From: a virus
Lineage: Duplodnaviria > Caudoviricetes
Length of the DNA: 55,791 nucleotides
Direction: 5' to 3' (one strand)
IMG/VR virus record: IMGVR_UViG_3300031841_002239
Coordinates: 1-55,791 of that record
Shown: piece by piece, positions 2,046-24,539 of the stretch
How the letters are laid out: each line of letters opens with the position of its first letter
Numbering within the stretch: the stretch's first letter is position 1
Notes under the pieces: model-generated
The model's input: only the letters and a program-made list of their open reading frames with translations
What the model was told of the DNA's origin: nothing
Database searches by the model: none
Translations under genes and position numbers: made by a program

Positions 2046-3024
2046 TCATGAACTCCGCATAATCTCCTGGATTCTGACTCATACGTTCTAGATTCCATTT
2101 AGCACAAAACTTCATAAAATATATACCAACTTGCTGTTTAGATTCTTTCTCTTTTGCTTCTGCAATTCGTTGTTTACATTCTGCTTTTATCTCATCAGGT
2201 TGTTGTGTTAAATCAATTAGTATTTTATTACGTTCAAAATCGTCTTTCACTCTGTGTTCTTGCTCTTCATGATCTACCCAACGTTGTAGCATAAAGTTAT
2301 TGTAATTGTATCCGCCTGTGTGCCTATCTTCATAGGCTTCTGTAATTCCTGTTTTATTTTTAGTGCCTTTTAATCTAGCACCAGGATAAGCACTAAACAC
2401 ATTATCACTAGAGTCGCCTCTAACACACTTCTCAAACAAGACCCATTCAGGTACTACTGGAGTTTTCTTTTCATTTGTCTTTTTGTCTATTACCCACTCA
2501 CCTGTTTTACAATCTTTAAACCCTTCTAAACTAACAATTTGATCTGTTGTACCGTTATATTGTGTTACATTGTCTGCAATTAACTGATAAAAGTCACTGT
2601 CTGTACTTATAATTACATGATTATCTTCTGGATGTTCTTGTATCCAAGTAGCAATTAAGTCATCTGCTTCAGCATTAGGCTGTTGTATAACACTACAATT
2701 AGTACGTTTATCTAAAAACTCTACCATATCATTATAAGATTCAAAAAACAATTCGTCATCTTCTTGCTCTCTGACACTTCTTTTATCCATTGTGACTTTA
2801 CGGTTTGCTTTATATGGAGTATAAAAGTCTTTACGCCAAGAACGTCCTTCTAAACACATAACAACATGATCGCCATCAAAATCTCGCCATACTTTCTTAA
2901 TACTATTAAACATAATATGCATAGCCATTCCAACTCGCATATCAATATCTCTTCCCCCACCAACATGTTTGGCACGGAAGAACATGTTTAAACTATCTAC
3001 TAATATGTATGTCTTTTTACTCAT
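2032..3024 (-). CDS. rnh: T4 RNase H-like 5'-3' exonuclease / flap endonuclease
   Basis: ILVDSLN, YKANR, EADDLIA, STDSDFYQL and GDSSDNV motifs of the FEN/5'-nuclease family. Confidence 0.9.
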   Translation of the reverse strand: MSKKTYILVDSLNMFFRAKHVGGGRDIDMRVGMAMHIMFNSIKKVWRDFDGDHVVMCLEGRSWRKDFYTPYKANRKVTMDKRSVREQEDDELFFESYNDMVEFLDKRTNCSVIQQPNAEADDLIATWIQEHPEDNHVIISTDSDFYQLIADNVTQYNGTTDQIVSLEGFKDCKTGEWVIDKKTNEKKTPVVPEWVLFEKCVRGDSSDNVFSAYPGARLKGTKNKTGITEAYEDRHTGGYNYNNFMLQRWVDHEEQEHRVKDDFERNKILIDLTQQPDEIKAECKQRIAEAKEKESKQQVGIYFMKFCAKWNLERMSQNPGDYAEFMNGKA

Positions 3025-3265
3025 TATTAAATCCTAAGTCGTCATTTATTATAGCATCAAAAGGCGATTCTTTCAAGTTCTTTTCACGAAGTTTTTCAAA
3101 GTCTCTTGTTAAATCGTATTTTAAATGTTTCCTAAAATTAGCCAATATATACTCTACTTCAGCAGATGTAAAATCCTCTAATTGCTTTTCTACAACTGGC
3201 TCTATAGACTTAACTAGGATCGCTAGTTTTGTCTTGGCCTGTGTTTCCATTTGTTCTGATGACAT
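3017..3265 (-). CDS. Hypothetical protein
   Basis: 82 aa ORF with GGAG upstream. Confidence 0.6.
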   Translation of the reverse strand: MSSEQMETQAKTKLAILVKSIEPVVEKQLEDFTSAEVEYILANFRKHLKYDLTRDFEKLREKNLKESPFDAIINDDLGFNNE

Positions 3266-3734
3266 CAGTTTCTCCTTCTTGCTGTAAGCCGTAATCTTGG
3301 TCTGCTATTTCTTGTACTAATACTGTTCTACATACGTCATTAAACCACTTATTAACAACATCTTCATCATTTTCGCCTCTATACCCGTTCTCATGTAAAA
3401 ACTTAACAAAATGATCGTTCCAGTCTAATTCCATATATCCTGCTTTAGCATTTTCAGGATTTACGTCTAATTTAAGAACATTTACATATGGTGCCTGTGT
3501 AATATCAGCAACTGCTTTTTCATGTTCATATTTTCCAATTTTACCATTTTTAAGTTGTACATCAAGTTTAGCAATTTCCTTATCTTCATCAGTTTCTGCT
3601 TCAATTTCTGCTAATGCTTCTTCTAACTCTTCTCCATCATAATAATATTCTGCTTCTGCTATTGCACGAGTCTTACCTTTAAGACCCCAACTAGCAGGCA
3701 TCATGCTAAATGGTAGTTTAGTTTTCTTTGACAT
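3210..3734 (-). CDS. Hypothetical acidic phage protein
   Basis: 174 aa ORF with an ELDWND-x-FV motif; no function recognised. Confidence 0.7.
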   Translation of the reverse strand: MSKKTKLPFSMMPASWGLKGKTRAIAEAEYYYDGEELEEALAEIEAETDEDKEIAKLDVQLKNGKIGKYEHEKAVADITQAPYVNVLKLDVNPENAKAGYMELDWNDHFVKFLHENGYRGENDEDVVNKWFNDVCRTVLVQEIADQDYGLQQEGETDVIRTNGNTGQDKTSDPS

Positions 3735-4164
3735 CTTCTTTCTCCTTTAATACTGCCGTAACACTTTTTATTGTACAGGTGTGTTTACTTGGCCTGCCAA
3801 AACTAATTGGTATAATTTTATCGCCTCTGCCTATAGTATTAAATCCGCCCCAAGGCTGGAATACTATTCGTTGTGCGAAGGAAAGATCATAACAATAATA
3901 TAACTCTATATCGTATTCTTGTTTTCTAGTAGTTCTAACTCTAATTACATTATTATTTTGTATAGAATAACCTCTAATACTTCTCATATTAATACTTTTA
4001 ACTTGTAAATCTTGTTTAGTTACAGCAATACCGTGTTCTGTATACCCAACAATTTCTTTTTCATCTGCTTTTGTTTCAAATGCCACCATCATTAAAAACA
4101 TTACAAATGCTGTTATCAGCAAAGGAGACATGTTCTTTATAAAATTCCAATCGTGTTTATCCAT
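3718..4164 (-). CDS. Exported/membrane-anchored hypothetical protein (DUF6491-like beta domain)
   Basis: N-terminal hydrophobic segment; paired Cys in YYCYDL...CTIKSV. Confidence 0.5.
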   Translation of the reverse strand: MDKHDWNFIKNMSPLLITAFVMFLMMVAFETKADEKEIVGYTEHGIAVTKQDLQVKSINMRSIRGYSIQNNNVIRVRTTRKQEYDIELYYCYDLSFAQRIVFQPWGGFNTIGRGDKIIPISFGRPSKHTCTIKSVTAVLKEKEDVKEN

Positions 4165-4165
4165 A

Positions 4166-5065
4166 TTATTTTCCTATTGCGTTACCGTATATATGTACGT
4201 GAACTCTGCTCGTATAATTGTAGCCACGTTGTATGGCTTCGTCGGCTATACTTGCCTCTGTTTGTACTAGGCCTTCAAAGGTGCCGCCAACTCCCATGAT
4301 CCATACAGGGAAGTTACAGCCGGCATCTCTAAATAATTTTGTGTGTTCTTCTACTTCTCTCCAACTTTCATCTGTGCCATTTACCACATACTTCAATTGA
4401 CCATGTGGACTTACTTCTGCATATCTGCCTATTACTTCTGGCTTGATTGCTTTTTTGTTCTTCTCACCAGCAGTACTCCATAGTTTAGGACTAAGGCTCC
4501 AATACCATTCTGAACCATTAGCCCATGCTGGATATTCTGAGCTAATATAATTAGCAAACTCATCTGTTATAGGCTTTGTGCCATTTGTTTCCACAGTTAC
4601 GTTCATTGGCTTATTGCCTCTGCGTTTAAATTCTTCTATAACACTAATCATACCAGGCTGTGTGTTTTTAAGCATTGGCTCGCCACCTGTAAACACCATA
4701 TGCACACTTTGTTTTGTAACAGGATGTACAAATTGGGAGTGCGGCAGAAGGGCTGTAAGTTCGTCTACTGCCTCCTCTACCGTCTTATCAGTAATTAAGT
4801 GCTTATACTTTTTGCTCCAAGTATAACTACTATCACAACCTTTTTCAAACACAGGCAAATCAAATACATTTGTTATGTCTGTAATATCTAACTTTTCATA
4901 AGGTAAATCATATGTGCTTGGATCAGTAGGATCACTTTGTCCAAAGCCATTACATTGTAAATTACATAGGAAGAATCTCATCCACAGACTAGGAATACCA
5001 ACATACTGTCCTTCGCCTTGTGCGGAGTAAAATGTTTCGCTATATTTTAATGTAGTGTTATCCAT
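4166..5065 (-). CDS. queE: 7-carboxy-7-deazaguanine synthase QueE (radical SAM)
   Basis: SETFYSAQGEG, R-FFLCNLQC...GCDS, FTGGEPML, ETNGT, SLSPK and RVH motifs. Confidence 0.88.
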   Translation of the reverse strand: MDNTTLKYSETFYSAQGEGQYVGIPSLWMRFFLCNLQCNGFGQSDPTDPSTYDLPYEKLDITDITNVFDLPVFEKGCDSSYTWSKKYKHLITDKTVEEAVDELTALLPHSQFVHPVTKQSVHMVFTGGEPMLKNTQPGMISVIEEFKRRGNKPMNVTVETNGTKPITDEFANYISSEYPAWANGSEWYWSLSPKLWSTAGEKNKKAIKPEVIGRYAEVSPHGQLKYVVNGTDESWREVEEHTKLFRDAGCNFPVWIMGVGGTFEGLVQTEASIADEAIQRGYNYTSRVHVHIYGNAIGK

Positions 5066-5570
5066 CTTGTTCTTTTAAAAAATTTATAAAATCCTGTTTA
5101 TCAAATTCACCGTCAGTAATATCCATTATAGCACTATATACAATATTATGCAAGTCACTAGATTGGAATGTAATACTGCCATTTAATTCATCTTCAAAAG
5201 ATTCAATAGCACACATTCTAAATCCTTTATCATATAAAATGTCAAAATTGTCTTCTTTTTCAAGAAATACTTTACCATATTGTATTGCTTTTAAAAAATA
5301 CACATCAGACATTTGTCTTGCTTCTATAGTAAGTTGACCAACTTCCTCATTTACATTTTCGAGCTGTAAGTGTATACCAGCATCTAACTTGTCTAAATCA
5401 GCAACACAGTCAAGACATTCCATAACCTCAAGTGGTGTTAACGGGTATCTAGTGCAAATCCAATCCATATTGAATCTATCACAAATTGCATCAGTAACCT
5501 CTCTAACAGGCACAGCATGTCTGCCTATAACTAAGTGACCATTACGAGTATTAATCATTAGGTTCCGCAA
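5058..5570 (-). CDS. Protein with N-terminal DUF433-like helix-turn-helix domain
   Basis: GHLVIGRHAVPV...ICTRYPLTPLEVMECL follows the DUF433 pattern G-P-I-GTRIPV...I...YP-LT-EDI-AAL. Confidence 0.5.
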   Translation of the reverse strand: MRNLMINTRNGHLVIGRHAVPVREVTDAICDRFNMDWICTRYPLTPLEVMECLDCVADLDKLDAGIHLQLENVNEEVGQLTIEARQMSDVYFLKAIQYGKVFLEKEDNFDILYDKGFRMCAIESFEDELNGSITFQSSDLHNIVYSAIMDITDGEFDKQDFINFLKEQDG

Positions 5571-6247
5571 GAATGTTGTTGCTGTAGTTTAATGTTATCG
5601 AAAAATTCTTTCTTAGTACTCTGGTCTTCCATAAATCTGCCTTCCAATACAGTTGTTTGTGTTAAACTGCTATGTGCTAATACACCTCTGTTCTCTACGC
5701 AACCGTGTGTTGCTTGTATGTAAACACCTAAGTTTACACTACCAGTTGCCGCCTTAATTTCTCTAGCAATATCATTAGCAAGTTCTTCCTGTAATGTACC
5801 ACGTCTTGCACACCATTGTGCAATTCTAGTGTACTTAGAAAGCCCTATGAGCGTTTCTCCTGCAATAATACCTATGTATGCAATACCTTTAACAGGCTGA
5901 TGATGGTGTGAACACATACTTTGTATTTCACTTCTCACAACCAACATACCTTTATAACCTTCTTCAATGTCATTAGGAAATGCTGTAGCATTAGGCATAT
6001 CGTTATATCTGCCCCACATAAGTTCATTGATATACATTTTAGCAAGACGTTTAGCAGTACCTTGACTGTTAGGGTCATTAAATCTATCAATTAGTAGTGT
6101 GTCTAATACACCTTCAAAATGAGGAATAAGTTCTTCAATAAGTGCTTGATCATCACCTTCGTCCATAAATGCTGAAACATTATCACTTGCCCAATACTTA
6201 GCACCAGCATCTTTAATTCTTTGTGTTATTTTCTCACTAGTCTTCAT
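5558..6247 (-). CDS. folE: GTP cyclohydrolase I
   Basis: SMCSHH, GLSKYTR, LQEEL and HGCVENRG motifs. Confidence 0.95.
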   Translation of the reverse strand: MKTSEKITQRIKDAGAKYWASDNVSAFMDEGDDQALIEELIPHFEGVLDTLLIDRFNDPNSQGTAKRLAKMYINELMWGRYNDMPNATAFPNDIEEGYKGMLVVRSEIQSMCSHHHQPVKGIAYIGIIAGETLIGLSKYTRIAQWCARRGTLQEELANDIAREIKAATGSVNLGVYIQATHGCVENRGVLAHSSLTQTTVLEGRFMEDQSTKKEFFDNIKLQQQHSCGT

Positions 6248-6446
6248 TTTTCATTTCCTTAATTCTTTCTTTTAATTCTTCAATTTCCCTTTTAAGAGCA
6301 AGTTTTTCGAACTTCTCTTGTCTAACTTTGTCATCACTATCATGATGTTCCCAATGCCTTGTAATTTTCTTATCTAGTTCTCGGTGTATGTTTTCCAAAT
6401 GTTTTAAATGATTTGTTAAACTTTTTACCGTACTCACTTCCACCAC
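6237..6446 (-). CDS. DUF465/YdcH-like coiled-coil protein
   Basis: H-x-ELDKKI...K-x-EKLALKREI pattern. Confidence 0.6.
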   Translation of the reverse strand: MVEVSTVKSLTNHLKHLENIHRELDKKITRHWEHHDSDDKVRQEKFEKLALKREIEELKERIKEMKNED

Positions 6447-6925
6447 TCCTCATAAGGAAATACAATCCATTTTTCTTCTTCTGGCGTCACTCTATTACCT
6501 GTAAAACTTACATGCTCAAATGCACTACTCTCTTTATCGAATAGTGTAGCATACTTTAAGCCTTCATGCAATGCCAATAGGTTATTATTTTCTTCTGAAT
6601 CCCATTTATCCACAACACCTTTAATACCGTTTAAAGTATGTCCTGAATCATTAATGTCATCTACAAGTAAAATATCTTCACTACTGTATTTAGATAAAAT
6701 AGTCTCTAACCTAGTGGATTCCTTGATCATGTCATGATCTCTTGTTTGCCATTCAAAGCCATGGAAAGGAACTTCAAAGTAATGACTTAGCATTACGCCC
6801 ATTACATAGGCACCTCTGCCAGGCCCAATTACAACATCAGGTTTAAAACCACTTACATGAATTTGTCTTGTTATTTCGCTAAGATCTTTGTCTAGATCTT
6901 TGTTAGAATAGTATAGTTTTGCCAT
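6434..6925 (-). CDS. Type I purine phosphoribosyltransferase (xanthine/guanine PRT-like)
   Basis: PRPP-binding ILLVDDINDSGHTL, GRG loop, WIVFPYE C-terminus as in Gpt. Confidence 0.85.
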   Translation of the reverse strand: MAKLYYSNKDLDKDLSEITRQIHVSGFKPDVVIGPGRGAYVMGVMLSHYFEVPFHGFEWQTRDHDMIKESTRLETILSKYSSEDILLVDDINDSGHTLNGIKGVVDKWDSEENNNLLALHEGLKYATLFDKESSAFEHVSFTGNRVTPEEEKWIVFPYEEWWK

Positions 6926-6931
6926 AATATT

Positions 6932-6959
6932 ATTATAGCAGAAAAGATTACAATGTCAA
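6932..6959 (-). promoter_or_regulatory. Sigma70-type promoter, ATG 6 nt after the -10 box
   Basis: TTGACA-N16-TATAAT with extended TG; PRT ATG at 6925. Confidence 0.75.
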
Positions 6960-6960
6960 G

Positions 6961-7926
6961 TTATTTTTTCTTGGACGATTGAAATTCTATTTCTGACTTT
7001 ACAATGTCCTCTAAAGAATTTGTTGGTTCCCAACCAAATAAATCTATTGCTTTAGAAATATTTGCATCTGTTTTTGCGGCGTCGCCTTCTCTTTTTGGAC
7101 CATATTCAACATCAATTGTATTGCCTGTTTGTGCTTCTACTTCTGCTATAACTTGCTTAATACTTTTAGGAGAACCAGCACCAATGTTAAATACACCACT
7201 ATCGCCACCATCAAACAGATAGTTTAATGATGCCAAATGAGCTGTTGCTATATCCAATACGTGAGTATAATCTCTAACACAGGTTCCATCTATTGTGTCG
7301 TAGTCATCTCCGTTTACTACAAACTTTCCTCCATTTAGTGCCTTGTCTACTAAAACAGGCATTATATGTTCTTTAGGATCTAACTGATACCCAAATCCTT
7401 CATAACTACCTGCGGCACAAAAATATCTTAAACTATTATAAGTAAAATCGTGTACTGCTGATAGATCTTCTAAAATAGTTTCCACCATTGCCTTTGTTCT
7501 ACCATAAGGTGTTTTAGGATTGATATCATCTATTTCTGAGTTCAGTAAGTTGTCTGAGTCTCCGTAAACAGAACTTGAACTACTGAATACAAAATGTTTT
7601 ACACCACCGTCTATAGCATGATCTAATAGTTTAATAGAATTTTCTACATTGTTTACATAGTATTCTTTTGCTTCTGCAATACTTTTAGGTACACTATGAT
7701 GAGCCGCCAAATGAATAATTGCATCTGGTTTTGTCATTTCAATAACACCTTTAATTTGAGAGTTGTTAATATCAAATGGATATTGTGTTACGCCCTCTAT
7801 GGGTCTTTTTACTCTGTCTACATTAATAACATTGTAACCAGAATCAGCAAGTAACTTACAGGTTACACTACCTATAAAGCCACTACCACCTGTTACTAAA
7901 ATTGTTTTTTCTTCATTACTGCTCAT
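6961..7926 (-). CDS. galE: UDP-glucose 4-epimerase
   Basis: GGSGFIG, FSSSSSVYG, YGRTK and DGTCVRDYTHV motifs. Confidence 0.9.
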   Translation of the reverse strand: MSSNEEKTILVTGGSGFIGSVTCKLLADSGYNVINVDRVKRPIEGVTQYPFDINNSQIKGVIEMTKPDAIIHLAAHHSVPKSIAEAKEYYVNNVENSIKLLDHAIDGGVKHFVFSSSSSVYGDSDNLLNSEIDDINPKTPYGRTKAMVETILEDLSAVHDFTYNSLRYFCAAGSYEGFGYQLDPKEHIMPVLVDKALNGGKFVVNGDDYDTIDGTCVRDYTHVLDIATAHLASLNYLFDGGDSGVFNIGAGSPKSIKQVIAEVEAQTGNTIDVEYGPKREGDAAKTDANISKAIDLFGWEPTNSLEDIVKSEIEFQSSKKK

Positions 7927-8924
7927 ATTTTGTCGCCTGTGTTATCTCCAACACCAAACCAGGTTTGCATTACCTGATCTGTGTTTAAGACTATTTGTTG
8001 CTCTTGATAATCATTAAGTGCATTAATTACCATATCCACACTTTCATCAAATCTATCAAATAGTTTTGTATCTGGATATAGTTCAGGATACACTAGTCTA
8101 TTAGGCAATACAGGTGTACAACCTAAATATACGGCTTCAGCAACTCCAAAGCCAAAGTTTTCTTGCAAGGCATAACTTACTACTGCTTTACTTTTTCCTA
8201 GTAAACTGTAATATTCTTCCTTGCTAAGATCCATTTCCTGCGTTTTAAGAAATTGTATATCCCTATCAAGTCTTTTAGATACTTGCTCTCGCAGTTCATT
8301 AAACAACCAAGGTTGTTTCTCATCACAAAGTCTACCATTAAAAATAACAATATCTTTTTTAGTTTGCCCTTTGTGTTTTTCTAATCCTGAATAGTCTACA
8401 GGTAAACCTGAAACAACTAATTTATTAGGATTAACCATTCTTTTCTTTATAATATCATTTTTAATGAAATTACTTGCACAATAAATTGTATCACTAATAT
8501 CAAAAATAATATCTTCAAAGTTCTTTGCCCAACGTTCCATATCCCTAACAAAGTCTGTATCAGTAAAACTACCTGCATGTATGATGCCTGTAATTTTAAG
8601 GTTATCCATCTTGTTAAAATATTTCATGTAAGCAATACTTTCTATTCCTGGGAACCATATATCACTAAAGAATAAGGTATCACCATCTGTTATGACACCT
8701 CGTTCTATTAAGTCTGATATCTCTGCTATTTGCAATGCTTTAAATTTACTTGTAAAAGCAGAATTTAAAAATTGTCCTTCAGGAAGTGGAGGAGTTTCAT
8801 ATGTAGGCATAACTTTAATATAGTCAATATTTTCTCTGTTAAGATATTCCTCAATAGCAATATCCATATGAACAGTATATCTACCATCTATGTGTTCTAA
8901 AGGAACATATATTAATTTACTCAT
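7923..8924 (-). CDS. GT-B fold (GT4-like) glycosyltransferase
   Basis: FNGRLCDEKQP and ENFGFGVAEA (E-x7-E) motifs. Confidence 0.82.
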   Translation of the reverse strand: MSKLIYVPLEHIDGRYTVHMDIAIEEYLNRENIDYIKVMPTYETPPLPEGQFLNSAFTSKFKALQIAEISDLIERGVITDGDTLFFSDIWFPGIESIAYMKYFNKMDNLKITGIIHAGSFTDTDFVRDMERWAKNFEDIIFDISDTIYCASNFIKNDIIKKRMVNPNKLVVSGLPVDYSGLEKHKGQTKKDIVIFNGRLCDEKQPWLFNELREQVSKRLDRDIQFLKTQEMDLSKEEYYSLLGKSKAVVSYALQENFGFGVAEAVYLGCTPVLPNRLVYPELYPDTKLFDRFDESVDMVINALNDYQEQQIVLNTDQVMQTWFGVGDNTGDKI

Positions 8925-9060
8925 CGCCTAAATCTCCATAATCAACAACATCAGTAATTTTGTCATCTAAACTTTGTGCAAAATCGTTTTTCTTATCTGC
9001 CTCATTTTTAGAAATAAAGTTAGGCTTAGATTCTGTATTACTTTTGTCGTCTTTTTCCAT
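8917..9060 (-). CDS. Small acidic hypothetical protein (start reassigned to MEKDDK)
   Basis: ATG at 9060 directly follows the stop of the Hc1-like gene. Confidence 0.45.
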   Translation of the reverse strand: MEKDDKSNTESKPNFISKNEADKKNDFAQSLDDKITDVVDYGDLGDE

Positions 9061-9061
9061 A

Positions 9062-9238
9062 TTACATTGAATTCCTTTTTTCTTGGATTTCAGTTCTTCT
9101 TGTTTTAGCAAGTTTAGTAAGTTCCATAAGTGCCTTTCTAGCTCTTGTTGAACTAGCCTTTACACCATTTACTTCAAACTTTTCATGTTCTGCTAAGTAT
9201 GTTTCCATTGCTACTTTTAATTGTAGATGCGTTTCCAT
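9062..9238 (-). CDS. Histone H1-like (Hc1 family) nucleoid protein, 58 aa
   Basis: Not in track. METHLQLKVAMETYLAEHEKFEVNGVKASSTRARKALMELTKLAKTRRTEIQEKRNSM; G-x-KA-x-x-TRARK motif; AAGGAG RBS. Confidence 0.75.
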   Translation of the reverse strand: METHLQLKVAMETYLAEHEKFEVNGVKASSTRARKALMELTKLAKTRRTEIQEKRNSM

Positions 9239-9250
9239 ATTTTTCTCCTT

Positions 9251-9625
9251 TTATGGTAATTTTACATATTCCATTTCAGCACCATTTTCATTATCTTCTG
9301 CTACTGAAATTTTTACCCAACGGCCAGGATACTTATTCTGTATCTGTTCCGCCAAATTATCTGCGATCATCTCGCATGACTTGTTATTAAGTTGTATAAC
9401 TTCTTCGTTATACAAACTTTCAAGCCATCTTTTAAACTGTATAAACTCGATGTCTCTATCATCATGAAACACTTCAATCCACACTTTAAAGTGGAAAATA
9501 TGTCTGTGTTTATACCCTAAAAAACTTACGTCGTCCCAATCGCCTGTTGCTAAATTAGGATCTGTGTCTGCTCCAGGATAGAAATGTATCCCTTCTTTAC
9601 TAAATGTTACCCAAATACTTCTCAT
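9251..9625 (-). CDS. QueD-like T-fold protein (possible DpdL-type paralogue)
   Basis: LGYKHRHIF, SCEMIA and VAEDNENGA motifs; lacks the canonical QueD CxxxHGH. Confidence 0.72.
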   Translation of the reverse strand: MRSIWVTFSKEGIHFYPGADTDPNLATGDWDDVSFLGYKHRHIFHFKVWIEVFHDDRDIEFIQFKRWLESLYNEEVIQLNNKSCEMIADNLAEQIQNKYPGRWVKISVAEDNENGAEMEYVKLP

Positions 9626-9651
9626 AATAATCTGCCTTCTATAGTGTTTAT

Positions 9652-9828
9652 TTACAGTTTATCCAGTTCTTCAATCAGTTCTTCTGGTATTTCTGCACCG
9701 TTTTTTATTAAGAATTTAAACAATAAAACTACCAATGCCTGTATATCTTCCTCATATTGGAAGTCTCCGTCATAAGATGCGTATGTTTGTATTCCGTCAT
9801 CGTCTGTTGCTGTTATATCTATTTTCAT
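9652..9828 (-). CDS. Hypothetical acidic protein, 58 aa
   Basis: Not in track. MKIDITATDDDGIQTYASYDGDFQYEEDIQALVVLLFKFLIKNGAEIPEELIEELDKL; start overlaps the upstream stop (ATGA). Confidence 0.6.
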   Translation of the reverse strand: MKIDITATDDDGIQTYASYDGDFQYEEDIQALVVLLFKFLIKNGAEIPEELIEELDKL

Positions 9829-10331
9829 TCTACTGGCTTATCGCCTCCATCAGTGTATTTAGACCAAGGAATAAAATGTTCCTTATCTAATACATCTTGT
9901 AATTGCATTGACCAAGTACCTTCATTGGTCTTGTCAAACCCTTTATCAGCAATTTTAAATGCTGTATTAAAGTTGTATTTAGATGAACTAGGCAATACTG
10001 CGGTTATAACAGGTATAAAATTGCTATAATCATGTAACCCCATTTTAAATATATCTTCTGCATACTTAACTTCAAATTCTAATGTAACCTTAACACCATT
10101 ATCGCATAAATGCAAAAGTAGTTCTTCCCAAAGTTTCCATTGATCAAATCTCTCTGCATCAAAATAGCATAAGTGTATATGAGTACATTTTTCATTTAAT
10201 GCTCTACTTAAAATTTCTTCTACTGGTTGCCAACCTGCTACAAACAAAGTAGTTTCACCTTGTGCAACGGTATGCTCAACTTCTTTACCAACAAAGAATT
10301 TTACGTCATTAAAATTAGGCTTATCTTTCAT
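9825..10331 (-). CDS. Hypothetical protein coupled to the TGT/DpdA-like gene
   Basis: 168 aa ORF 3 nt downstream of the transglycosylase stop. Confidence 0.7.
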   Translation of the reverse strand: MKDKPNFNDVKFFVGKEVEHTVAQGETTLFVAGWQPVEEILSRALNEKCTHIHLCYFDAERFDQWKLWEELLLHLCDNGVKVTLEFEVKYAEDIFKMGLHDYSNFIPVITAVLPSSSKYNFNTAFKIADKGFDKTNEGTWSMQLQDVLDKEHFIPWSKYTDGGDKPVE

Positions 10332-10334
10332 TTA

Positions 10335-11870
10335 CTATGCCTCAAAGTCTCCAGACATAATATCATGTGTTTTAGCACCAATATCATCATCCATATCAAA
10401 CTCTTCCTCTTCAAAGAAAGCACCAAATCCTGCATTAGTTTTAGCACCAAAGCTCAACTCATCTAATAATTTAATATTTTTTTCAATTAAGTCATATGCT
10501 TCATCAATAGATAATTTAGGGTCTAATACTTCCTGACAAAAACTATCGAAGTATAATGCTTTTGCAGGTACATAAGGACTAAACTCATTACTCTTACCAC
10601 TTGATTTGTCTTTTATAAAGTCACTGTAATGTATATTAGTTCTGTACTTTTCTACATCTGCTAACCTGTTTGCTTCTTGTACCGCAGTAATATGGTTGTA
10701 CACACTATGACCCATGTAATATAAGTAACTTTGTGTGTCCCAACTTGTACTGTCTGGTCCTTTTGCTTTACCGTTCTTGTCTTCGTCTCCTTCTGCCATT
10801 GCACAAATATCTCCAGCAGTTAGCCTGCTCATTATAGGAGAGTGTGCAAAAGGCATAGGCATATCAGACCCTTTAAGTGCCTGATTGTCTATTGCTCTGT
10901 CCATTAAGTAACTGAACTTCTTAGGATGGAAACTGTTATGTGTATATGTACTACCATATGCACTATTAACAAACGGACTTGCGGCATCCATACTCAAACA
11001 TATTTCTGGACTATCATGTTTTCTTAACATTCTTTGTATGCTAGTTAAGTAACATGCCCAGTCTAGTTTACCTGTACCTAGGAAATGTATCCAACCTTTG
11101 TCTTTAAGTAAGCCATCTTCTCTAAGTTTTAATATACGTCTTAGTGCCATTCTCATATTACGTTTTTGTAAATCAGCAAATGCATATCCTTCTAATGCAA
11201 GTTCACTATTGCCATATGCTTCTTGGCAAAACTTAGGATCACTAAAGTTTTTAACATTTTCATACCACTCATCACAAGTAGGTTGGTCAACACCACTCAT
11301 TACATTTAAGAACTTACACTTACCTGGTGTTCTGTTCTTCATGTAGTAATCTAAGTTGTACAAACTAATTGTCATAGTTTGCTCAAATGTTTCTAAACCT
11401 GTTTTCTTATTAAAAGGAGGGAAGGCGGCAAAAGGAGGTACATCAAGTGTCATTGCCCAATCACATTGTTCTTCTTCCCATTTAAGTATTTTATCTACTA
11501 GCTCTATCCTGGCAGGATCATCTGGGTTAATAGCATTAGCCCAATCCATTTTAATAACACCTGTGGCAATCTGGAAACCACCGGAGTCTCCTAGTATCAT
11601 TGTTTTACTTCTATCTCTGTCAGTAATCATAGGCTCGCCATCTAACTTTGTTAAGTCTAACTGAGCATGACCGGCTGAATACAATCCCCAAGGATAATGA
11701 TAGTAAGTGTCTTTGTCTTTTAGGAAATCCATACCTTCATGGCCTAATTCAAAGCCTTCAGGTATCCTGCCACCATCTTTAGCAATTTTTTCTAATTGCT
11801 TTACATAGAAACTACTAATAGCAGGTAAGTATAAGGCGTAGTCTCTTTGTGTCTTTCCTAAATCGTACAT
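10335..11870 (-). CDS. dpdA: tRNA-guanine transglycosylase-fold enzyme, probable DNA 7-deazaguanine transglycosylase (DpdA family)
   Basis: GDSGGFQ, MTLDVPP, WIHFLGTG and SMDAASPF motifs; clustered with folE, queE, queD-like and replication genes. Confidence 0.72.
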   Translation of the reverse strand: MYDLGKTQRDYALYLPAISSFYVKQLEKIAKDGGRIPEGFELGHEGMDFLKDKDTYYHYPWGLYSAGHAQLDLTKLDGEPMITDRDRSKTMILGDSGGFQIATGVIKMDWANAINPDDPARIELVDKILKWEEEQCDWAMTLDVPPFAAFPPFNKKTGLETFEQTMTISLYNLDYYMKNRTPGKCKFLNVMSGVDQPTCDEWYENVKNFSDPKFCQEAYGNSELALEGYAFADLQKRNMRMALRRILKLREDGLLKDKGWIHFLGTGKLDWACYLTSIQRMLRKHDSPEICLSMDAASPFVNSAYGSTYTHNSFHPKKFSYLMDRAIDNQALKGSDMPMPFAHSPIMSRLTAGDICAMAEGDEDKNGKAKGPDSTSWDTQSYLYYMGHSVYNHITAVQEANRLADVEKYRTNIHYSDFIKDKSSGKSNEFSPYVPAKALYFDSFCQEVLDPKLSIDEAYDLIEKNIKLLDELSFGAKTNAGFGAFFEEEEFDMDDDIGAKTHDIMSGDFEA

Positions 11871-12616
11871 TAACTTCTCGCAGGTAATAAGTATGTGTAT
11901 TTTGCCATTCCGCTGTCTACAATAATTTGTAGTAGGCCTTGATCATTAATACTCATTACACAATTACCAGTATCACTTAGCCTTAATATTTTTAATACAA
12001 TATCTAAAGGCCATTTCCAGTCACCTGTAATGCTACCATCAATATCACTATTAATTAAAATTTTTGTTCTGTCACTTACACCATCACCAATATGGAACCA
12101 TAAACTAGTACCATCAGTTTTAGGACTAAAGTTCGCCTCAAATCCACCTAACACACTATTAAAGTATGCCATGTCTTTTAAATTTTTATCAGTAGGCACA
12201 ATGTTTAAATCAAACTCAGCACCTTTAAACTTAATTGCTTTAAGTTGCTGGTTAATAACATCTGCTAACATAAATCTGTAATGTGCATCATTTCCATCTG
12301 CACTTGTAAATTCTACTTCAACAGGAACAGTTTCGCCATTACGGTCTTGTGTGTTTATTTTAACGTCTGAACCTTCGCCATCAAATCCAGGATATTGTAA
12401 GTAGCCCTGTAATACCTGCATTCTGCTTAACCCAACAGTTGAGTCCACAAACTCAGGATAAGGGTTATGTGTCTCACCTTTAAAGATTACAGTTTTGTCT
12501 GCATCTACTGTTTCAACAGTAGTTTTTTCAACATCACCGGAAATCTTAACCATTTCAAATATACCTAAACCATGTGTATGTTTAAGTACGTCTTTCATTA
12601 TGTCTTTAATTGCCAT
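11870..12616 (-). CDS. Sliding clamp (T4 gp45-like)
   Basis: 248 aa, next to PolB, clamp-like size and C-terminal strand pattern (YTYLLPA). Confidence 0.65.
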   Translation of the reverse strand: MAIKDIMKDVLKHTHGLGIFEMVKISGDVEKTTVETVDADKTVIFKGETHNPYPEFVDSTVGLSRMQVLQGYLQYPGFDGEGSDVKINTQDRNGETVPVEVEFTSADGNDAHYRFMLADVINQQLKAIKFKGAEFDLNIVPTDKNLKDMAYFNSVLGGFEANFSPKTDGTSLWFHIGDGVSDRTKILINSDIDGSITGDWKWPLDIVLKILRLSDTGNCVMSINDQGLLQIIVDSGMAKYTYLLPARS

Positions 12617-12640
12617 TCATTTCTCCAAGATTAATATATC

Positions 12641-12668
12641 ATTATACATTGTTATTTAGATAAGTCAA
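12641..12668 (-). promoter_or_regulatory. Sigma70-type promoter with embedded TAAATA
   Basis: TTGACT-N16-TATAAT upstream of the clamp-dpdA run. Confidence 0.7.
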
Positions 12669-12687
12669 GTTGTTTTTAACCATTTTT

Positions 12688-15363
12688 TTAGAATTCAAAA
12701 AACGTTGATAACGTTTCACTTTGTGTAGTCCTGCTTAAATCAAAGCCCATAGGACCAATAACATTAGCAACTTTTTTATCTAATACTGTTTCTTCCATTG
12801 CCTCTTCATCAAATGGTAAATCCTTAAACCATTGTGGCAAATTAAGTTCATCTGTAGGATATGCTACACTAGTATATCCCATTGGATTATTTTTAAGTTT
12901 ACATACAATTACTTTAGCACCGTCTGTTACTGATAAACTATACGCATCACTGTTTGCTTTTTTAAGATTGTTCCAATTAATACTAGCTCTAACATGCCCA
13001 GGTATCATATTGCTTTTGCCTTCATTTTTAAGAGCATGTAATTTATGTAACGTATTTGTATTAGGTGCTCTGGCTTGCTCCATCATTTTAGATGTATACA
13101 TAGTAACATTATTAGCACGTTTAGGCATACCCTTGCCCCATGGCTCTAACTCTTTAAAATACTTTTTAAACTCTTTAATTTTTTCTATTACATGTTCTTC
13201 GCCTAAACCATTTAAACAATCTACTAATAATTCTTCTAAAAAGTCTTGTATAAACTCAGGAGTGTCAGAACGTTTAATTTCTAAACCCATTGCCTTTAGT
13301 TTGCCACCTTCAGGCTGATAACCTTCAATATCTAAACACAATATACCATATCTCTTTTTAGTTAAAAACAATCCTGCTCTGCCAACAACTTCTCTACCAG
13401 CAATCATTACAGCACCACGTTCCAAAGGAACATTAAATGTGTCTTTTAAAAACTTAGGAAATGTACCACTCACTGTGTCTGATACATGATCATATAACTT
13501 AATAGCACTATCCATATCTAATGCTTGTTCACCCATAATAGGTGCCGCACTAAAATACACAGAATCAGTATCACCATAAATTATTGTTTCGCCTTCATAA
13601 TCATATTCGCCTGTAAATATTCTGTTTGTCTCAGCCGCCATATGCTTCGTAATAGCTCTGCCTGTTAGTGTTGTGCTTTGTCCTATACGTTTGTCATAAA
13701 ACCTACAATGAGGATTAAGTATTGCACCATACAAACTGTTTAACTGAATCTTTTTAACTAACTGCCTTTTATCCCAATATACCTGCTCTGCGCCTTCTGA
13801 TTCTTTTTTCTTCTTCTGCATACGTTGTCTATCAGTATACCAAAGTTCCAATAAGCCAGGCACAATACCTTGTACGTCAGTTGTAAATATTGTGCCGTTA
13901 GCACTAATATTCCAGGGTTGGCCACTATTAAAAACTAAGTTATAAACGTCAGCACCTGTTACTTCATGTACTCCACCATCTTCCATTTCTAACTTCATCA
14001 TATGGTCAACGTCTTTGCTTTTAACAAACTCAAACTCGTTTGTACCAAACTTGCCATGCCAAGCATCAGCAAAACTTTTCTTCTCTAATTTTTGTGCATT
14101 TGTAATTTCTTCTAATGTATAACTAGGATCTAATTGTCCCACAATAGTCTCAGGCGCCATATTAAGAGCCCTAAACACACTAGGATATAGACTGTTTAAA
14201 TCCATACTGCCTACCCAGTCATGATATCCTTTCTTAGGCGTAGCCACAAAGGCACCTGCCGCACTATCACGTTCAGATGATTTAGGCTTATCAGGAACTA
14301 CCATGCCACGTCTATGTGCTTCATTTATAATTGCTTGTTCAGTTGTTGCTACAGCACCCATAGTTGTTGGAATTAATACTGTATTTTCATGTGCAATAAT
14401 GTTTGCTAGATCAACAAACTGTAGTTTCTTATCCAGTTTATCCAACAGCATAACGTCTTGTATGTTATATTCACAAAACTTTAAGAAGTCATGATTGTAA
14501 AGTCTATCTAAACTACCTTCATATGGAACTTTCTTTTCACCAACTTCCATTTCACCAATATAGTCTAATCTATAACTATGGCGTTCTTCATAGTTATATT
14601 TTCTATAAAGCTCTAAGTAATCTAAATGTATTCTACCTACTAAATCATATGTAACAACTTCACTGCCAAACTTTTCATACTCTCTTCTCTTAGGCAGTTT
14701 TTTCATCAAACACATACGTCTTGTTTCTGCTTTACCTAATGTTTTAGTAATCCTATTAACTGTATAAGGTATATCATATCCTTCACTGTTCCAGCCACTA
14801 AGTACGTCAGCATCTTCTATAATATCTAAAAATGTATCTAACATCTCCTTTTCTGTTTTAAACAGCATTACTTCAGGTAGAGGCTTAACAACTTCTTGTG
14901 CCTGTTCCCAACTTAAAGTTTTAGGAGGTACTGCTAAACATATCATTGCATCCATCCACTGTAAGTAAACACCTATTGCTGTTATGGGAGTAAATGGGTC
15001 AGAAGGACTACTGTATCCACGTTGTGGATCGAAGTCTACCTCAATATCAAAAAATGCTACATTTAGATCTGGTGCATCAGCACCGTTGTAGTCTTGTGCT
15101 AATACTTTATTAATAGGCCTTATATCGCTCTCGAATGTTTTATTACTGCTATGTATACCTAAATTTTTCTTAAAGTCTTTTATATTAGCACATCTTAGTT
15201 CAGTTACAGGGTCACCGTAAATGCTTTTATGTTTACCATGTGGGTCAGCATAATAAAAATTATGTGTGGGACTTATTTCTTTTATAATACGTTTGCCATC
15301 AATACGCTCAACGACAGTAACAATGTCCTTGCCTTGATCGTAAAATGCGTCAACGTAACTCAT
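12688..15363 (-). CDS. Family B DNA polymerase (T4 gp43-like)
   Basis: Exo motifs FDIE, GWNSEGYD, YNIQD; Pol motifs DLNSLYPS, KIQLNSLYG, YGDTDS, KKRY; C-terminal clamp-binding-like LSTFFEF. Confidence 0.96.
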   Translation of the reverse strand: MSYVDAFYDQGKDIVTVVERIDGKRIIKEISPTHNFYYADPHGKHKSIYGDPVTELRCANIKDFKKNLGIHSSNKTFESDIRPINKVLAQDYNGADAPDLNVAFFDIEVDFDPQRGYSSPSDPFTPITAIGVYLQWMDAMICLAVPPKTLSWEQAQEVVKPLPEVMLFKTEKEMLDTFLDIIEDADVLSGWNSEGYDIPYTVNRITKTLGKAETRRMCLMKKLPKRREYEKFGSEVVTYDLVGRIHLDYLELYRKYNYEERHSYRLDYIGEMEVGEKKVPYEGSLDRLYNHDFLKFCEYNIQDVMLLDKLDKKLQFVDLANIIAHENTVLIPTTMGAVATTEQAIINEAHRRGMVVPDKPKSSERDSAAGAFVATPKKGYHDWVGSMDLNSLYPSVFRALNMAPETIVGQLDPSYTLEEITNAQKLEKKSFADAWHGKFGTNEFEFVKSKDVDHMMKLEMEDGGVHEVTGADVYNLVFNSGQPWNISANGTIFTTDVQGIVPGLLELWYTDRQRMQKKKKESEGAEQVYWDKRQLVKKIQLNSLYGAILNPHCRFYDKRIGQSTTLTGRAITKHMAAETNRIFTGEYDYEGETIIYGDTDSVYFSAAPIMGEQALDMDSAIKLYDHVSDTVSGTFPKFLKDTFNVPLERGAVMIAGREVVGRAGLFLTKKRYGILCLDIEGYQPEGGKLKAMGLEIKRSDTPEFIQDFLEELLVDCLNGLGEEHVIEKIKEFKKYFKELEPWGKGMPKRANNVTMYTSKMMEQARAPNTNTLHKLHALKNEGKSNMIPGHVRASINWNNLKKANSDAYSLSVTDGAKVIVCKLKNNPMGYTSVAYPTDELNLPQWFKDLPFDEEAMEETVLDKKVANVIGPMGFDLSRTTQSETLSTFFEF

Positions 15364-15386
15364 AGATGTGCTATCCTCATACTGTT

Positions 15387-15415
15387 ATTATACAGTAATA
15401 GTAGTATAAAGTCAA
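15387..15415 (-). promoter_or_regulatory. Sigma70-type promoter of polB
   Basis: TTGACT-N17-TATAAT, GAGG RBS downstream. Confidence 0.75.
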
Positions 15416-15419
15416 TTAA

Positions 15420-15683
15420 TTATAGTGTTTTACCAACAGATTCCAAAATAGTTTCTAGTTCGTCAAACTTATCGAACTCATCTTGGAACTTGGCTTTGTG
15501 AGCAATCTTTACTGCTTTCATTAAAACACCAGGCTTAAGATCCATTTCCTCTGCTATTGCTTTAACAGTTTCACGGAGGCCTGTGCTTAGAGCATCAACT
15601 TCATGTAGAACTTGATCTCCTTCCTGAATTAATTTTTTAAGCCTTGCTACTTCTTCTTGATTGAATGTTTTATTAAATGCCAT
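15420..15683 (-). CDS. T4 DsbA/GapR-like dsDNA-binding protein
   Basis: LKKLIQEG...LRETVKAIAEEMDLKPGVLMKAVKIAHK pattern; start set at MAFNK. Confidence 0.55.
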   Translation of the reverse strand: MAFNKTFNQEEVARLKKLIQEGDQVLHEVDALSTGLRETVKAIAEEMDLKPGVLMKAVKIAHKAKFQDEFDKFDELETILESVGKTL

Positions 15684-15894
15684 TGTTTGTATCCTGTATG
15701 CCAATATTTATTTGTAATGGTTCTATTATAACAGGATTTACGGTAGAGTCAACAGATATTTCAAAAACACCTTTAACTCCTGGAAATTGTTGGAAAGATA
15801 GGTTTTCTAGAATAGACCTATCTGTTATTTTTTGATTAGTTTTTTTATCGTAAGCGATAAATTCGTTGCCATTATAATGGACTTCTAAAATCAT
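15673..15894 (-). CDS. Hypothetical protein
   Basis: 73 aa, translationally coupled. Confidence 0.55.
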   Translation of the reverse strand: MILEVHYNGNEFIAYDKKTNQKITDRSILENLSFQQFPGVKGVFEISVDSTVNPVIIEPLQINIGIQDTNNGI

Positions 15895-17435: not shown

Positions 17436-17463
17436 ATTATAGCAAAATTTAAGAACTTGTCAA
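17436..17463 (-). promoter_or_regulatory. Sigma70-type promoter
   Basis: TTGACA-N16-TATAAT with extended TG. Confidence 0.75.
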
Positions 17464-22423: not shown

Positions 22424-22494
22424 TTTGTATCTCCTAATACTTATGTGTTCTAATTCGTTATCGATAACGTTTCGCTTTCGCTGAACGTTACTAG

Positions 22495-22500
22495 TATTTA
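22495..22500 (-). promoter_or_regulatory. Late-type promoter (GATAAATA)
   Basis: Upstream of the 1095-aa structural gene, followed by a hairpin leader and AGGAG RBS. Confidence 0.65.
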
Positions 22501-22519
22501 TCGTTTTAAGGGTTTTTTA

Positions 22520-24529: not shown

Positions 24530-24539
24530 AACTTAATCC

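Follow-up and report, generated by a model that had tools for sequence, protein, structure and literature searches.

What do the eight genes adjoining the DNA polymerase gene of an uncultured, giant marine phage make together, and does the glycosyltransferase (GT) encoded amongst them add a sugar to the phage DNA? The window we analysed, a stretch of 55,791 nucleotides, is the entire record and is estimated by CheckV to be 15% complete, so absence from the window does not mean absence from the phage. The module, which follows polB and a clamp-like gene on the minus strand, encodes a 511-aa protein with a TGT fold, a 168-aa protein (p168), a DpdL-type protein, a GT4-like GT, GalE, a purine PRTase, FolE and QueE. 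Our preferred reading, to which we tentatively give slightly less than an even chance, is a replication-linked exchange of guanine for a 7-deazaguanine-type base in the phage DNA, with the dedicated GT as a tailoring step. An assembly chimera is excluded, as contigs from four runs in four studies span all 30 bins of positions 3000–16000, and near-identical contig pieces join the PRTase, GalE, GT and DpdL genes (e.g. 6744–9562 with three differences). All of the genes named in a first-pass annotation are present on the minus strand where it had placed them. The ORF encoding LGYKHRHIF (9251–9625) does not directly follow the TGT-fold gene, after which another ORF comes first.

The upstream anchor of the module is a family B DNA polymerase (12688–15363, minus strand; PF00136 118 bits and PF03104 70 bits) whose gene adjoins that of the transglycosylase in 77 of 80 related loci. 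The 248-aa clamp-like protein (11870–12616, minus strand) was found in 79 of the 80; it has no match in a Pfam search and is named solely after the annotated sliding clamp of phage Phosso, with which it shares 29% identity (43% with a PA5oct protein). An NT5C-like nucleotidase is also encoded in the window (17460–18053).

The 511-aa protein (10335–11870, minus strand) had no match in sequence searches of Pfam, NCBIfam, PHROG and PDB. However, the AlphaFold model (mean pLDDT 92) gave tRNA-guanine transglycosylases as all of the best 50 Foldseek matches listed (E 8e-7 to 9e-6), and the invariant residues D95, S96, G98 and D295, together with D143, which is nearly so, occupy the positions of the TGT DSGGFQ, FD and nucleophile Asp; the catalytic residues are kept across 51 diverse family members. 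Both the fold and the catalytic Asp motifs of the TGT-fold enzyme proposed earlier are thus present, and we refer to the protein as a long DpdA-like guanine transglycosylase; the PA5oct enzyme is of the same long type (47% identity). By profile comparison the family is nearly as close to Escherichia coli tRNA TGT (hhalign 92.2%, E 6e-7, the catalytic motifs being aligned) as to the 424-aa protein of Acidovorax phage ACP17 (hhalign 96.8%, E 2.4e-10), and this counts against a role in DNA modification. Eukaryotic tRNAs carry mannosyl- and galactosyl-queuosines, and the target here could similarly be tRNA, with an inserted deazaguanine then glycosylated by the GT, but we regard this as very improbable. 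Pfam TGT PF01702 matched none of five sequences searched (the window and four related genomes), and the family has no invariant cysteines at the positions for the zinc site which belongs to tRNA TGTs. Pfam DUF3524, presumably the domain at the N-terminus of the mannosyltransferase for eukaryotic queuosine, had no match amongst 42 GT family members. The placement of polymerase, clamp and transglycosylase is that seen with DpdA in Enterobacteria phage 9g, and PA5oct DNA shows G-dependent resistance to restriction enzymes, the pattern suggesting a modified G, and is attacked by nucleases which sense modified G (PMC12191111).

Phage 9g, which has a DpdA1 system, encodes a polymerase, clamp, DpdA, FolE, QueD, Gat-QueC and QueE, and shares with the window a gene order in which polymerase and clamp are followed immediately by the transglycosylase and then by deazaguanine synthesis genes. 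Unlike the window, it has a QueC-type enzyme and neither DpdL nor GT, and profile comparison detected no similarity between its DpdA and the window transglycosylase (hhalign 0.4%). The neighbouring p168 (9825–10331, minus strand), which was absent from the earlier gene list, matches nothing in Pfam, NCBIfam, PHROGs, PDB or Atlas; it is nevertheless conserved in 35 of the 38 related viral loci having at least 5 kb downstream, and a homologue lies directly upstream of the ACP17 transglycosylase (hhalign 98.9%, E 3.7e-17).

The DpdL-type protein (9251–9625, minus strand; 124 aa) belongs to a family of QueD paralogues, on the evidence of its LGYKHRHIF motif and a match to phrog_17812 (E 6.7e-31). 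It is homologous to the founding member, CGPG_00067 of Cellulophaga phage phiST (hhalign 99.1%, E 5.5e-19; 35% identity), and H40, R41, H42, F44, C84, E85 and E110 are invariant in the family. The DpdL signature given in the first-pass annotation was correct, as the QueD CxxxHGH is replaced by LxxxHRHxF in DpdL (Cui et al. 2023, PMC10516641). The T-fold that the protein had also been assigned was not confirmed: comparison with a QueD gave hhalign 3.3% only and there was no PTPS match in PDB, although Atlas provides a lead in this direction (PTPS on 20% of the neighbouring cluster, score 0.94). Decarboxylation of 7-carboxy-7-deazaguanine (CDG) to 7-deazaguanine by DpdL is a proposal of the same authors, who report that phiST, with FolE, QueD, QueE, DpdL and DpdA3, has dG fully replaced by dDG (PMC10516641). 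The window resembles phiST in having FolE, QueE, a DpdL-type LxxxHRHxF protein and a TGT-superfamily enzyme in the cluster with no QueC; it differs in a transglycosylase twice as long (511 versus 259 aa; weakly related, hhalign 65%) and in the additional GT4 enzyme, p168, GalE and PRTase.

The GT (7923–8924, minus strand) is predicted to be a retaining GT4-like enzyme with a GT-B fold. Its match to Glycos_transf_1 is sub-threshold (18.3 bits, cut-off 26.4), but the model (pLDDT 82) has GlgM, MshA, BshA and glycogen synthase as top Foldseek matches (E 5e-10 to 1e-8), and family invariants include R198, E202, K203, E263 and E281. It is an integral part of the deazaguanine module: DpdL and GT occur together in 37 of the 38 viral loci, the sole exception having neither, and the median gap between their genes is 237 bp across loci. 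A search from the GT side gave 80 loci, every one with at least one deazaguanine gene; DpdL was found in 75 (in four of the remaining five the contig extends less than 320 bp upstream of the GT, and in the fifth about 1.2 kb) and the transglycosylase in 69 (nine of the other eleven have at most about 1.2 kb upstream). The GT also adjoins DpdL in PA5oct, Phosso, ACP17, X1, BUDD, BCSR5 and BUCT-ZZ01. On profile evidence, the presence of the GT goes with the type of transglycosylase, as neither the GT nor the long-transglycosylase profile matched any of five DpdL phages without an adjacent GT (phiST, RHph_I1_18, Ahp1, D479 and Bakedbeans; positive controls 5/5 and 4/5, respectively).

The association extends to bacteria, with the transglycosylase adjoining the GT in 30 of 38 GT loci from prokaryotic assemblies. 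Alphaproteobacterial chromosomes carry a compact GT/DpdL/transglycosylase unit, and loci with GT and transglycosylase but without polB were found in isolate chromosomes of Methylobacterium, Devosia, Pelagibacterium, Ochrobactrum, Aurantimonas and Magnetospirillum. The Magnetospirillum unit has a CoiA-type nuclease-like gene and QueD next to it, and the GT and transglycosylase genes of Devosia are separated by a YhhQ-like gene (Vut_1, 26.3 bits, marginally below the cut-off). Cultured phages with the GT module include ACP17, Xanthomonas phage X1 and Pseudomonas phage PA5oct, which have the core transglycosylase, GT, DpdL and QueE as in the window, and ACP17 the p168 homologue as well. The main text of Cui et al. 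2023 makes no reference to the GT or p168, and 'glycosyl' does not occur in it (PMC10516641).

It is possible, though we think unlikely, that the deazaguanine in the DNA is plain (dDG or dCDG), as it is in phiST, and that the GT acts in the pathway and leaves no sugar in the DNA; it might take over from QueC by activating the CDG carboxylate as a transient glycosyl ester, or modify some other acceptor needed for insertion. dDG has been measured in phiST (PMC10516641) and vibriophage VP1 (bioRxiv 10.1101/2025.10.29.685425) and is the sole product measured for DpdL phages in the literature we consulted, no QueC above the cut-off was found in five cultured DpdL genomes, and the structural neighbours MshA, BshA and GlgM take small-molecule acceptors. 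However, phiST reaches dDG with no GT family member by the GT profile, so the GT is unnecessary for dDG as such, and sugar-nucleotide genes which vary by lineage fit a lasting, selected sugar better than a transient carrier. These include GalE in some lineages and GFO/IDH/MocA plus an ADH-like enzyme, a cytidylyltransferase or an SDR in others. Several observations count against DNA tailoring by the GT: its nearest structural neighbours use small molecules or glycans as acceptors, no DNA glucosyltransferase, including the T4 enzymes, is amongst the best 50 Foldseek matches listed, the median pI of the family is 5.9 and so not basic (weak evidence, as almost every protein encoded by this phage is acidic), and plain 7-deazaguanine, the proposed product of phiST DpdL, offers neither a hydroxyl nor an amine on its 7-side to which a sugar could be attached.

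GalE (6961–7926, minus strand; TIGR01179 290.9 bits, cut-off 262.3) had been read as part of the cluster together with the GT. While the GT proved tightly syntenic with the module, GalE is an accessory outside the module core, as it is found in only 14 of the 38 loci (including all five closest relatives listed, L006, L007, L008, L011 and L018). A UGDH-like sugar-nucleotide gene lies far from the module (43651–44457). The type I purine PRTase (6434–6925, minus strand; PF00156 49.6 bits, phrog_8995; best solved relative the purine PRTase 1vdm in PDB, E 8e-6) occurs in 21 of the 38 loci; it was not detected in the retrieved regions of PA5oct, ACP17, Phosso and X1, nor was GalE in those of PA5oct, ACP17 and X1.

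The PRTase allows for a route at the nucleotide level before replication, in which it would put ribose phosphate on CDG and the DpdL-type protein would decarboxylate the product, with reduction, phosphorylation and incorporation by the neighbouring polymerase to follow, and with some other role for the TGT-fold protein. Tubercidin clusters of actinomycetes have no QueC, use CDG as starting point and include both a PRTase (PF00156) and a PF00478 GMP reductase (bioRxiv 10.64898/2026.04.15.718813), and locus L020 has a GMP reductase/IMPDH-family gene (PF00478, 237.6 bits) between GT and GalE and a HIT-domain gene further downstream; the NT5C-like nucleotidase and the position of the module next to polB and the clamp-like gene would also agree. 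We nevertheless consider such a route improbable, given that the transglycosylase retains all catalytic residues and accompanies the GT more constantly than any other partner, and that a PRTase is lacking in 17 of the 38 loci and in the bacterial islands and was not detected in the four cultured-phage regions. The same preprint describes huimycin synthesis, where a GT (PF13439), HuiG, glycosylates a free 7-deazapurine on nitrogen (bioRxiv 10.64898/2026.04.15.718813). Both are secondary-metabolite clusters and lack an enzyme for insertion into nucleic acid.

FolE (5558–6247, minus strand; PF01227 126 bits, phrog_2197 E 2.6e-43) and the QueE-like radical SAM enzyme of the CDG synthase family (4166–5065, minus strand; phrog_2076 E 2.1e-51; five NCBIfam QueE models match weakly, far below their cut-offs) complete the module, and QueE is present in 30 of the 38 loci. 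Instead, a pterin glycoside might be the joint product of FolE, the PTPS-like protein and the GT, or the GT and GalE might have virion proteins or the cell surface as their targets, and the sugar genes would then simply be parked here. A UDP-glucose:tetrahydrobiopterin glucosyltransferase (5zer) does appear amongst the structural matches of the GT, but at rank 35 it does not stand out from generic GT4 matches; the UGDH-like gene is a second point in favour. Both ideas seem highly unlikely when all 80 GT-side loci have a deazaguanine gene and bacterial GT and transglycosylase units occur without FolE, and pterin glycosides leave no role for QueE or the transglycosylase.

Profile searches agree with the earlier statement that QueC, QueD and QueF are absent from the window: QueC (PF06508) and QueD (PF01242) have no match anywhere in it, and QueF (PF14489) has just 13.6 bits, within the QueE frame. 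Lack of QueD is not borne out as a trait of these phages, as all five cultured DpdL phages and three of five large related contigs do encode a canonical QueD, outside the cluster and mostly at a great distance from it; the missing QueD is thus most likely an effect of the fragment. Overall, the DpdL, TGT-fold and GT-synteny parts of the first reading hold up, whereas the lack of QueD and GalE as a core component do not.

FolE, QueD and QueE form the established pathway to CDG. In our preferred reading, FolE would convert GTP to dihydroneopterin triphosphate, a QueD encoded outside the fragment would make CPH4, and QueE would then produce CDG, which the DpdL-type protein would turn into the base for insertion. 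The long DpdA-like transglycosylase, perhaps assisted by p168, would exchange guanine in DNA for this base, so that the DNA may contain dCDG or dDG. The GT4 enzyme would attach a hexose, here probably galactose from the UDP-Gal supplied by GalE, as suggested by gene linkage, either to the inserted base in DNA or, at an earlier stage, to the free base on its 7-side, giving a putative glycosylated deazaguanine. The PRTase would most simply recycle the excised guanine to GMP and on to FolE substrate, and the purpose would be escape from restriction. This parallels the T-even phages, in which a base is modified and a GT-B enzyme then adds a lineage-specific sugar to give glucosyl-hydroxymethylcytosine, which escapes restriction; it differs in that the T-even base is a pyrimidine incorporated as a nucleotide before replication. 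We found no description of a sugar-bearing deazaguanine in DNA in the literature, and such a base, if real, would be a purine DNA modification so far undescribed. In E. coli, DpdL and DpdA of ACP17 by themselves yielded no dDG, for which further enzymes may be required according to the authors (PMC10516641).

Besides p168, five ORFs were absent from the earlier list, including those of 64 aa (8917–9111) and 69 aa (6237–6446). A 170-aa protein (5058–5570, minus strand) has no family match in Pfam, NCBIfam or PHROGs and is found in the closest relatives only (3/80 loci), and a poorly conserved 58-aa ORF (9652–9828, minus strand; tblastn match in 1/80 loci) may not be a gene. Another ORF of 58 aa (9062–9238, minus strand), located between DpdL and the GT, encodes a basic protein (pI 9.8) with 60–70% identity across the five closest loci to which it is restricted.

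The window is a fragment of a jumbo phage (the 55.8 kb record is rated 15% complete), and all genes between 15363 and 4166 lie on the minus strand. In the direction of transcription they are a family B polymerase (12688–15363), a clamp-like gene (11870–12616), a 511-aa protein with the fold of a tRNA-guanine transglycosylase (TGT; 10335–11870), a 168-aa protein which we refer to as p168 (9825–10331), a 58-aa ORF, a 124-aa DpdL-type protein with the motif LGYKHRHIF (9251–9625), two small ORFs, a 333-aa glycosyltransferase (GT; 7923–8924), GalE (6961–7926), a type I PRTase (6434–6925), a 69-aa ORF, FolE (5558–6247), a 170-aa protein, and QueE (4166–5065). The first-pass annotation had named its genes correctly but skipped p168 and the small ORFs, and it had placed the LGYKHRHIF protein directly beside the TGT-fold gene when the two are not immediate neighbours. 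The full stretch is covered by contigs from four runs in four studies, and the PRTase–GalE–GT–DpdL segment is bridged by near-identical contig pieces, which indicates that the arrangement is not an assembly artefact (contig joints and loose ends were left out of this comparison because of short sides and mixed strains). At 11869, where the clamp-like gene meets the transglycosylase gene, a contig from run X9 carries an extra TAGT (four bases), a strain variant at low depth. The window phage was found near-identical in seawater, marine and river samples from five studies, RNA runs contained at most 0.10 of the sampled words, and a DNA megablast of 4000–16000 against phage records returned no match.

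The 511-aa protein had no match to any curated family or solved sequence, and the curated TGT model PF01702 was among those left unmatched. Its structural model (pLDDT 92) has a TGT-type TIM-barrel fold, and the Foldseek matches listed (ranks 1–50) are all tRNA-guanine transglycosylases with a probability of 1.00. In an alignment of 51 diverse members of this family D95, S96, G98, H262, G265 and D295 are invariant and D143 is nearly so, and profile alignment places the DSGGFQ motif, the base-binding Asp and the nucleophile Asp in register with the Z. mobilis and E. coli TGTs. The family is large, with 4,788 matches among 8,000 scored metagenome candidates and 766 clusters at 50% identity. When we compared it by hhalign with individual proteins, the closest was the 424-aa protein of the cultured phage ACP17 (96.8%, E 2.4e-10), followed by the enzyme of phage X1 (94.9%) and the E. 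coli tRNA TGT (92.2%, E 6e-7), with a weak match to the DpdA3 of Cellulophaga phage phiST (65%) and no kinship at this sensitivity with 9g DpdA1 (0.4%). Given these mixed scores we call the 511-aa protein DpdA-like without assigning it to a named subfamily (bDpdA or DpdA1–4), and it would presumably exchange guanine for a 7-deazaguanine in DNA. The fold and the E. coli match would also suit an enzyme that modifies tRNA, but no cysteines are conserved in the 51-member alignment, PF01702 found nothing at E up to 10 in any of five genomes (the window, PA5oct, Phosso, ACP17 and a complete 365-kb relative), and the gene follows the polymerase and clamp genes just as DpdA does in phage 9g, all of which argue against a role in tRNA.

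The ORF at 9251–9625 carries the LxxxHRHxF signature in place of CxxxHGH. The first-pass annotation had taken this signature as the mark of DpdL, and it is so printed in Cui et al. 2023 (PMC10516641), where DpdL is defined by it and decarboxylation of CDG is proposed without proof, heterologous expression having failed. The protein is homologous to the founding DpdL, CGPG_00067 of phiST (tblastn E 8e-7; hhalign 99.1%, E 5.5e-19). The same text gives the phiST protein an HHpred probability of 99.89% against PF01242; for the window protein, the link to QueD and PTPS was not recovered by hhalign against ACP17 QueD (3.3%), PTPS was not among the PDB profile matches, and an Atlas lead is the one result that points to T-fold/PTPS kinship. 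In the Vibrio phage Bakedbeans, a protein annotated at 383 aa (4215–5366 of the locus) has the DpdL-like region as its C-terminal third, and may be a fusion or have a mis-called start.

In the window the DpdL-type gene is accompanied by genes for the DpdA-like protein, FolE and QueE. None of the curated QueE equivalog models scored over cut-off (the best, TIGR04508, gave 41.6 bits vs 240) and the gene matches the PHROG QueE-like family (E 2.1e-51), so we regard it as a divergent phage QueE. Neither QueC nor QueD is present in the window. The absence of QueC, noted in the first-pass annotation, was borne out by profile search, and that of QueD also held for this 15% fragment; the fragment itself is the best explanation for the latter, since QueD is found elsewhere in relatives. 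It scored over cut-off in all five cultured DpdL phages (in PA5oct, Phosso and X1 the gene is separated from the cluster by at least tens of kilobases) and in three of five large related contigs, one of them complete. QueC did not reach cut-off in any of the five cultured genomes, and a short QueC-like gene (~31 bits, with a PP-loop and Cys motif) occurs in two of five metagenomic relatives, which makes a QueC-type step outside the window possible. One of these, in the complete 365-kb relative (1090–1698), encodes a 202-aa protein with an SGGFDS PP-loop and a C-terminal Cys motif at ~31 bits, far from the cluster, and suggests that some relatives may go beyond CDG.

The GT was found to be tightly linked to this module. 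Starting from the transglycosylase side, we found relatives in 594 of 599 candidate stretches of viral contigs, and among the best 80 of these loci we counted p168 in 71, DpdL in 67, the GT in 54, FolE and QueE in 28 each, PRTase in 21 and GalE in 14, which are lower bounds as many contigs are cut. Where at least 5 kb of downstream sequence was available (38 loci), DpdL and the GT were each present in 37, p168 in 35, QueE in 30, PRTase in 21, FolE in 20 and GalE in 14, the single exception lacking both DpdL and the GT. The synteny of the GT and galE with dpdA which the first-pass annotation had proposed to examine thus holds for the GT (37/38) but for GalE in 14/38 only. The usual order in related loci is polB, clamp, transglycosylase, p168, DpdL, a small ORF and the GT, followed by GalE or FolE, PRTase, QueE, a 174-aa homologue and a 5'–3' exonuclease. 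The reciprocal search from the GT side (545 of 599 stretches encoding relatives, the best 80 kept, and at least six contigs shared with the first set) recovered DpdL in 75/80 loci, the transglycosylase in 69/80 and at least one deazaguanine gene in 80/80. In four of the five loci without DpdL the contig extends <320 bp beyond the GT on its upstream side, and in the fifth ~1.2 kb; 9 of the 11 without the transglycosylase have at most ~1.2 kb upstream. The remaining two lack the gene over 5–8 kb of upstream sequence, a situation also seen in Phosso, whose transglycosylase gene is located elsewhere in the genome.

The GT is not a companion of every DpdL. An adjacent GT is missing in five DpdL phages (phiST, RHph_I1_18, Ahp1, D479 and Bakedbeans), and in these the GT profile found nothing (0/5; positive controls 5/5) and neither did the long transglycosylase profile (0/5; controls 4/5, with X1 missed). 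The GT thus tracks the long type of transglycosylase and not DpdL as such.

The GT model (pLDDT 82) has a GT-B fold of two Rossmann domains and is nearest to retaining GT4 enzymes, with Foldseek matches to GlgM, MshA, BshA and PimB' (E down to 4.7e-10). The window protein does not reach the cut-off of the Pfam family Glycos_transf_1 (18.3 bits vs 26.4), which 17/42 members of the GT family match at E of 1 or lower, the best at 1.2e-4; no curated Pfam model scored over its cut-off. These nearest GT4 enzymes act on small-molecule or glycan acceptors, no DNA glucosyltransferase appears among the structural matches listed, and a pterin glucosyltransferase is found at rank 35. Such matches leave room for two other explanations, namely that the DNA contains plain dDG, as in phiST, and the GT has a non-DNA role, or that pterin glycosides are made instead; it is from the gene linkage that we infer a DNA base as the acceptor. 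A predicted complex of the GT with the transglycosylase (residues 1–476) scored 0.00 and is uninformative either way, and pI was dropped as a sign of DNA binding as almost all proteins here are acidic. GalE passes the NCBIfam equivalog TIGR01179 (290.9 bits vs 262.3), and a second sugar-nucleotide gene lies 36 kb from the cluster, encoding a 268-aa UDP-glucose/GDP-mannose dehydrogenase-like protein with the N-terminal and central domains (43651–44457, minus strand). Related loci have other sugar-nucleotide or redox genes in place of GalE, namely those for GFO/IDH/MocA together with an ADH-like enzyme, for an SDR, for a cytidylyltransferase and for another radical SAM enzyme. In one related phage locus (L020, 10194–13375) a GMP reductase/IMPDH-family gene lies between the GT and GalE and a HIT-domain gene further downstream, before QueE. 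These genes recall the tubercidin gene set, and a tubercidin-like nucleotide route is a rival to base exchange in DNA; huimycin and tubercidin biosynthesis are precedents for a glycosylated deazapurine or nucleotide route. The module of many relatives also includes a recurrent ORF of ~153–158 aa with a conserved DPDDVHDH stretch (12531–12992 in L020, and in loci L062 and L079). The L020 copy gave no match in a Pfam scan, and the window showed no such ORF.

The most economical reading of these gene identities, folds, catalytic residues and linkage would begin with the known CDG pathway, on whose product the DpdL-type protein would act; the long transglycosylase would then exchange the base in DNA and the GT would transfer a sugar, with GalE as a putative source of UDP-galactose and the PRTase perhaps recycling the excised guanine. 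It is unlikely that a free base glycosylated on N2 would fit a pocket which keeps both aspartates, which we take from TGT structures to bind the base, so the sugar transfer would follow insertion or take place on the 7-side. The main weakness is that plain 7-deazaguanine has no obvious handle for a sugar, which means that either the DpdL-type enzyme makes another product or the linkage is unusual.

Pyrimidines in DNA are known to bear sugars, as in the T-even phages and base J, and we know of no sugar on a purine in DNA. We tentatively suggest, while leaning somewhat towards doubt, that a glycosylated 7-deazaguanine, probably a galactoside in this case, is present in the DNA of the window phage and many relatives, where it would be the first known example of a purine with a sugar, and that it is made by a portable core of long transglycosylase, DpdL-type protein and GT4 which restriction-like islands in Alphaproteobacteria also use as their modification arm. 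We found no report of a glycosylated deazaguanine in DNA in the literature, and the supplements of Cui et al. may list the GT. If the GT is indeed locked to the module, this would be a common and unrecognised DNA chemistry shaping restriction escape, as well as the targets of modification-sensing defences and sequencing behaviour. A GT-bearing module may also explain why ACP17 DpdL and DpdA gave no product in E. coli (as stated in the available text of PMC10516641), and the modified G which the authors inferred for PA5oct, with no structure given in the available text (PMC12191111). The cultured phages make a sugar-bearing base directly testable.

Related units are also found in bacterial chromosomes. 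Among species-representative prokaryotic assemblies 38 loci encode the GT, with the transglycosylase in 30/38 and DpdL in 28/38. Nine of these are phage-like contigs with polB, and the others include isolate chromosomes of Methylobacterium, Devosia, Pelagibacterium, Ochrobactrum, Azospirillum, Aurantimonas and Magnetospirillum, in which the genes form a compact two- or three-gene unit. In six non-phage-like loci the transglycosylase is next or next-but-one to the GT and no DpdL was detected. We scanned the gene neighbours at two bacterial loci. In a Magnetospirillum aberrantis contig (8210–14709) the order is a CoiA-type nuclease-like gene, GT, DpdL, transglycosylase, a 114-aa ORF and QueD; a HEPN_LA2681 gene is found a few kb upstream, and the unit looks like a restriction-modification-like island. 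In a Devosia naphthalenivorans scaffold (8066–11029), where the unit has no detectable DpdL, a YhhQ-like Vut_1 membrane protein gene (26.3 bits, just under cut-off) lies between the transglycosylase and the GT, and this layout suggests that an imported or host-made base is used.

For p168, no usable match came from the Atlas or from searching the PDB by sequence and by profile; a weak match to APOBEC (E 0.056) was lost in profile search and the relationship was rejected, and no homologue was recognised in the Phosso 'glycosylase', PA5oct gp0320 or phiST CGPG_00066 when each was compared. Elsewhere on the minus strand, the window encodes a 519-aa radical SAM protein (39101–40660) adjoining the clamp loader and PhoH, an NT5C-like 5'-nucleotidase (17460–18053) that falls just short of its cut-off, and a chaperone and protease set consisting of a 729-aa ClpA/ClpB-like AAA+ protein (29411–31600), a full DnaJ (31578–32393) and ClpP (48659–49249). 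On this strand the phage contig also encodes a 1086-aa TonB-dependent-receptor-like outer-membrane barrel (32474–35734; OMP_b-brl_4 at 107 bits, CarboxypepD_reg and Plug), which together with the 34% G+C we take as a hint of a Bacteroidota host. Three very large ORFs (1095, 669 and 1091 aa) occupy 19136–27815 on the same strand at a G+C of 0.39–0.40 vs ~0.34; the third contains a collagen repeat, and all three are probably fibre or structural genes.
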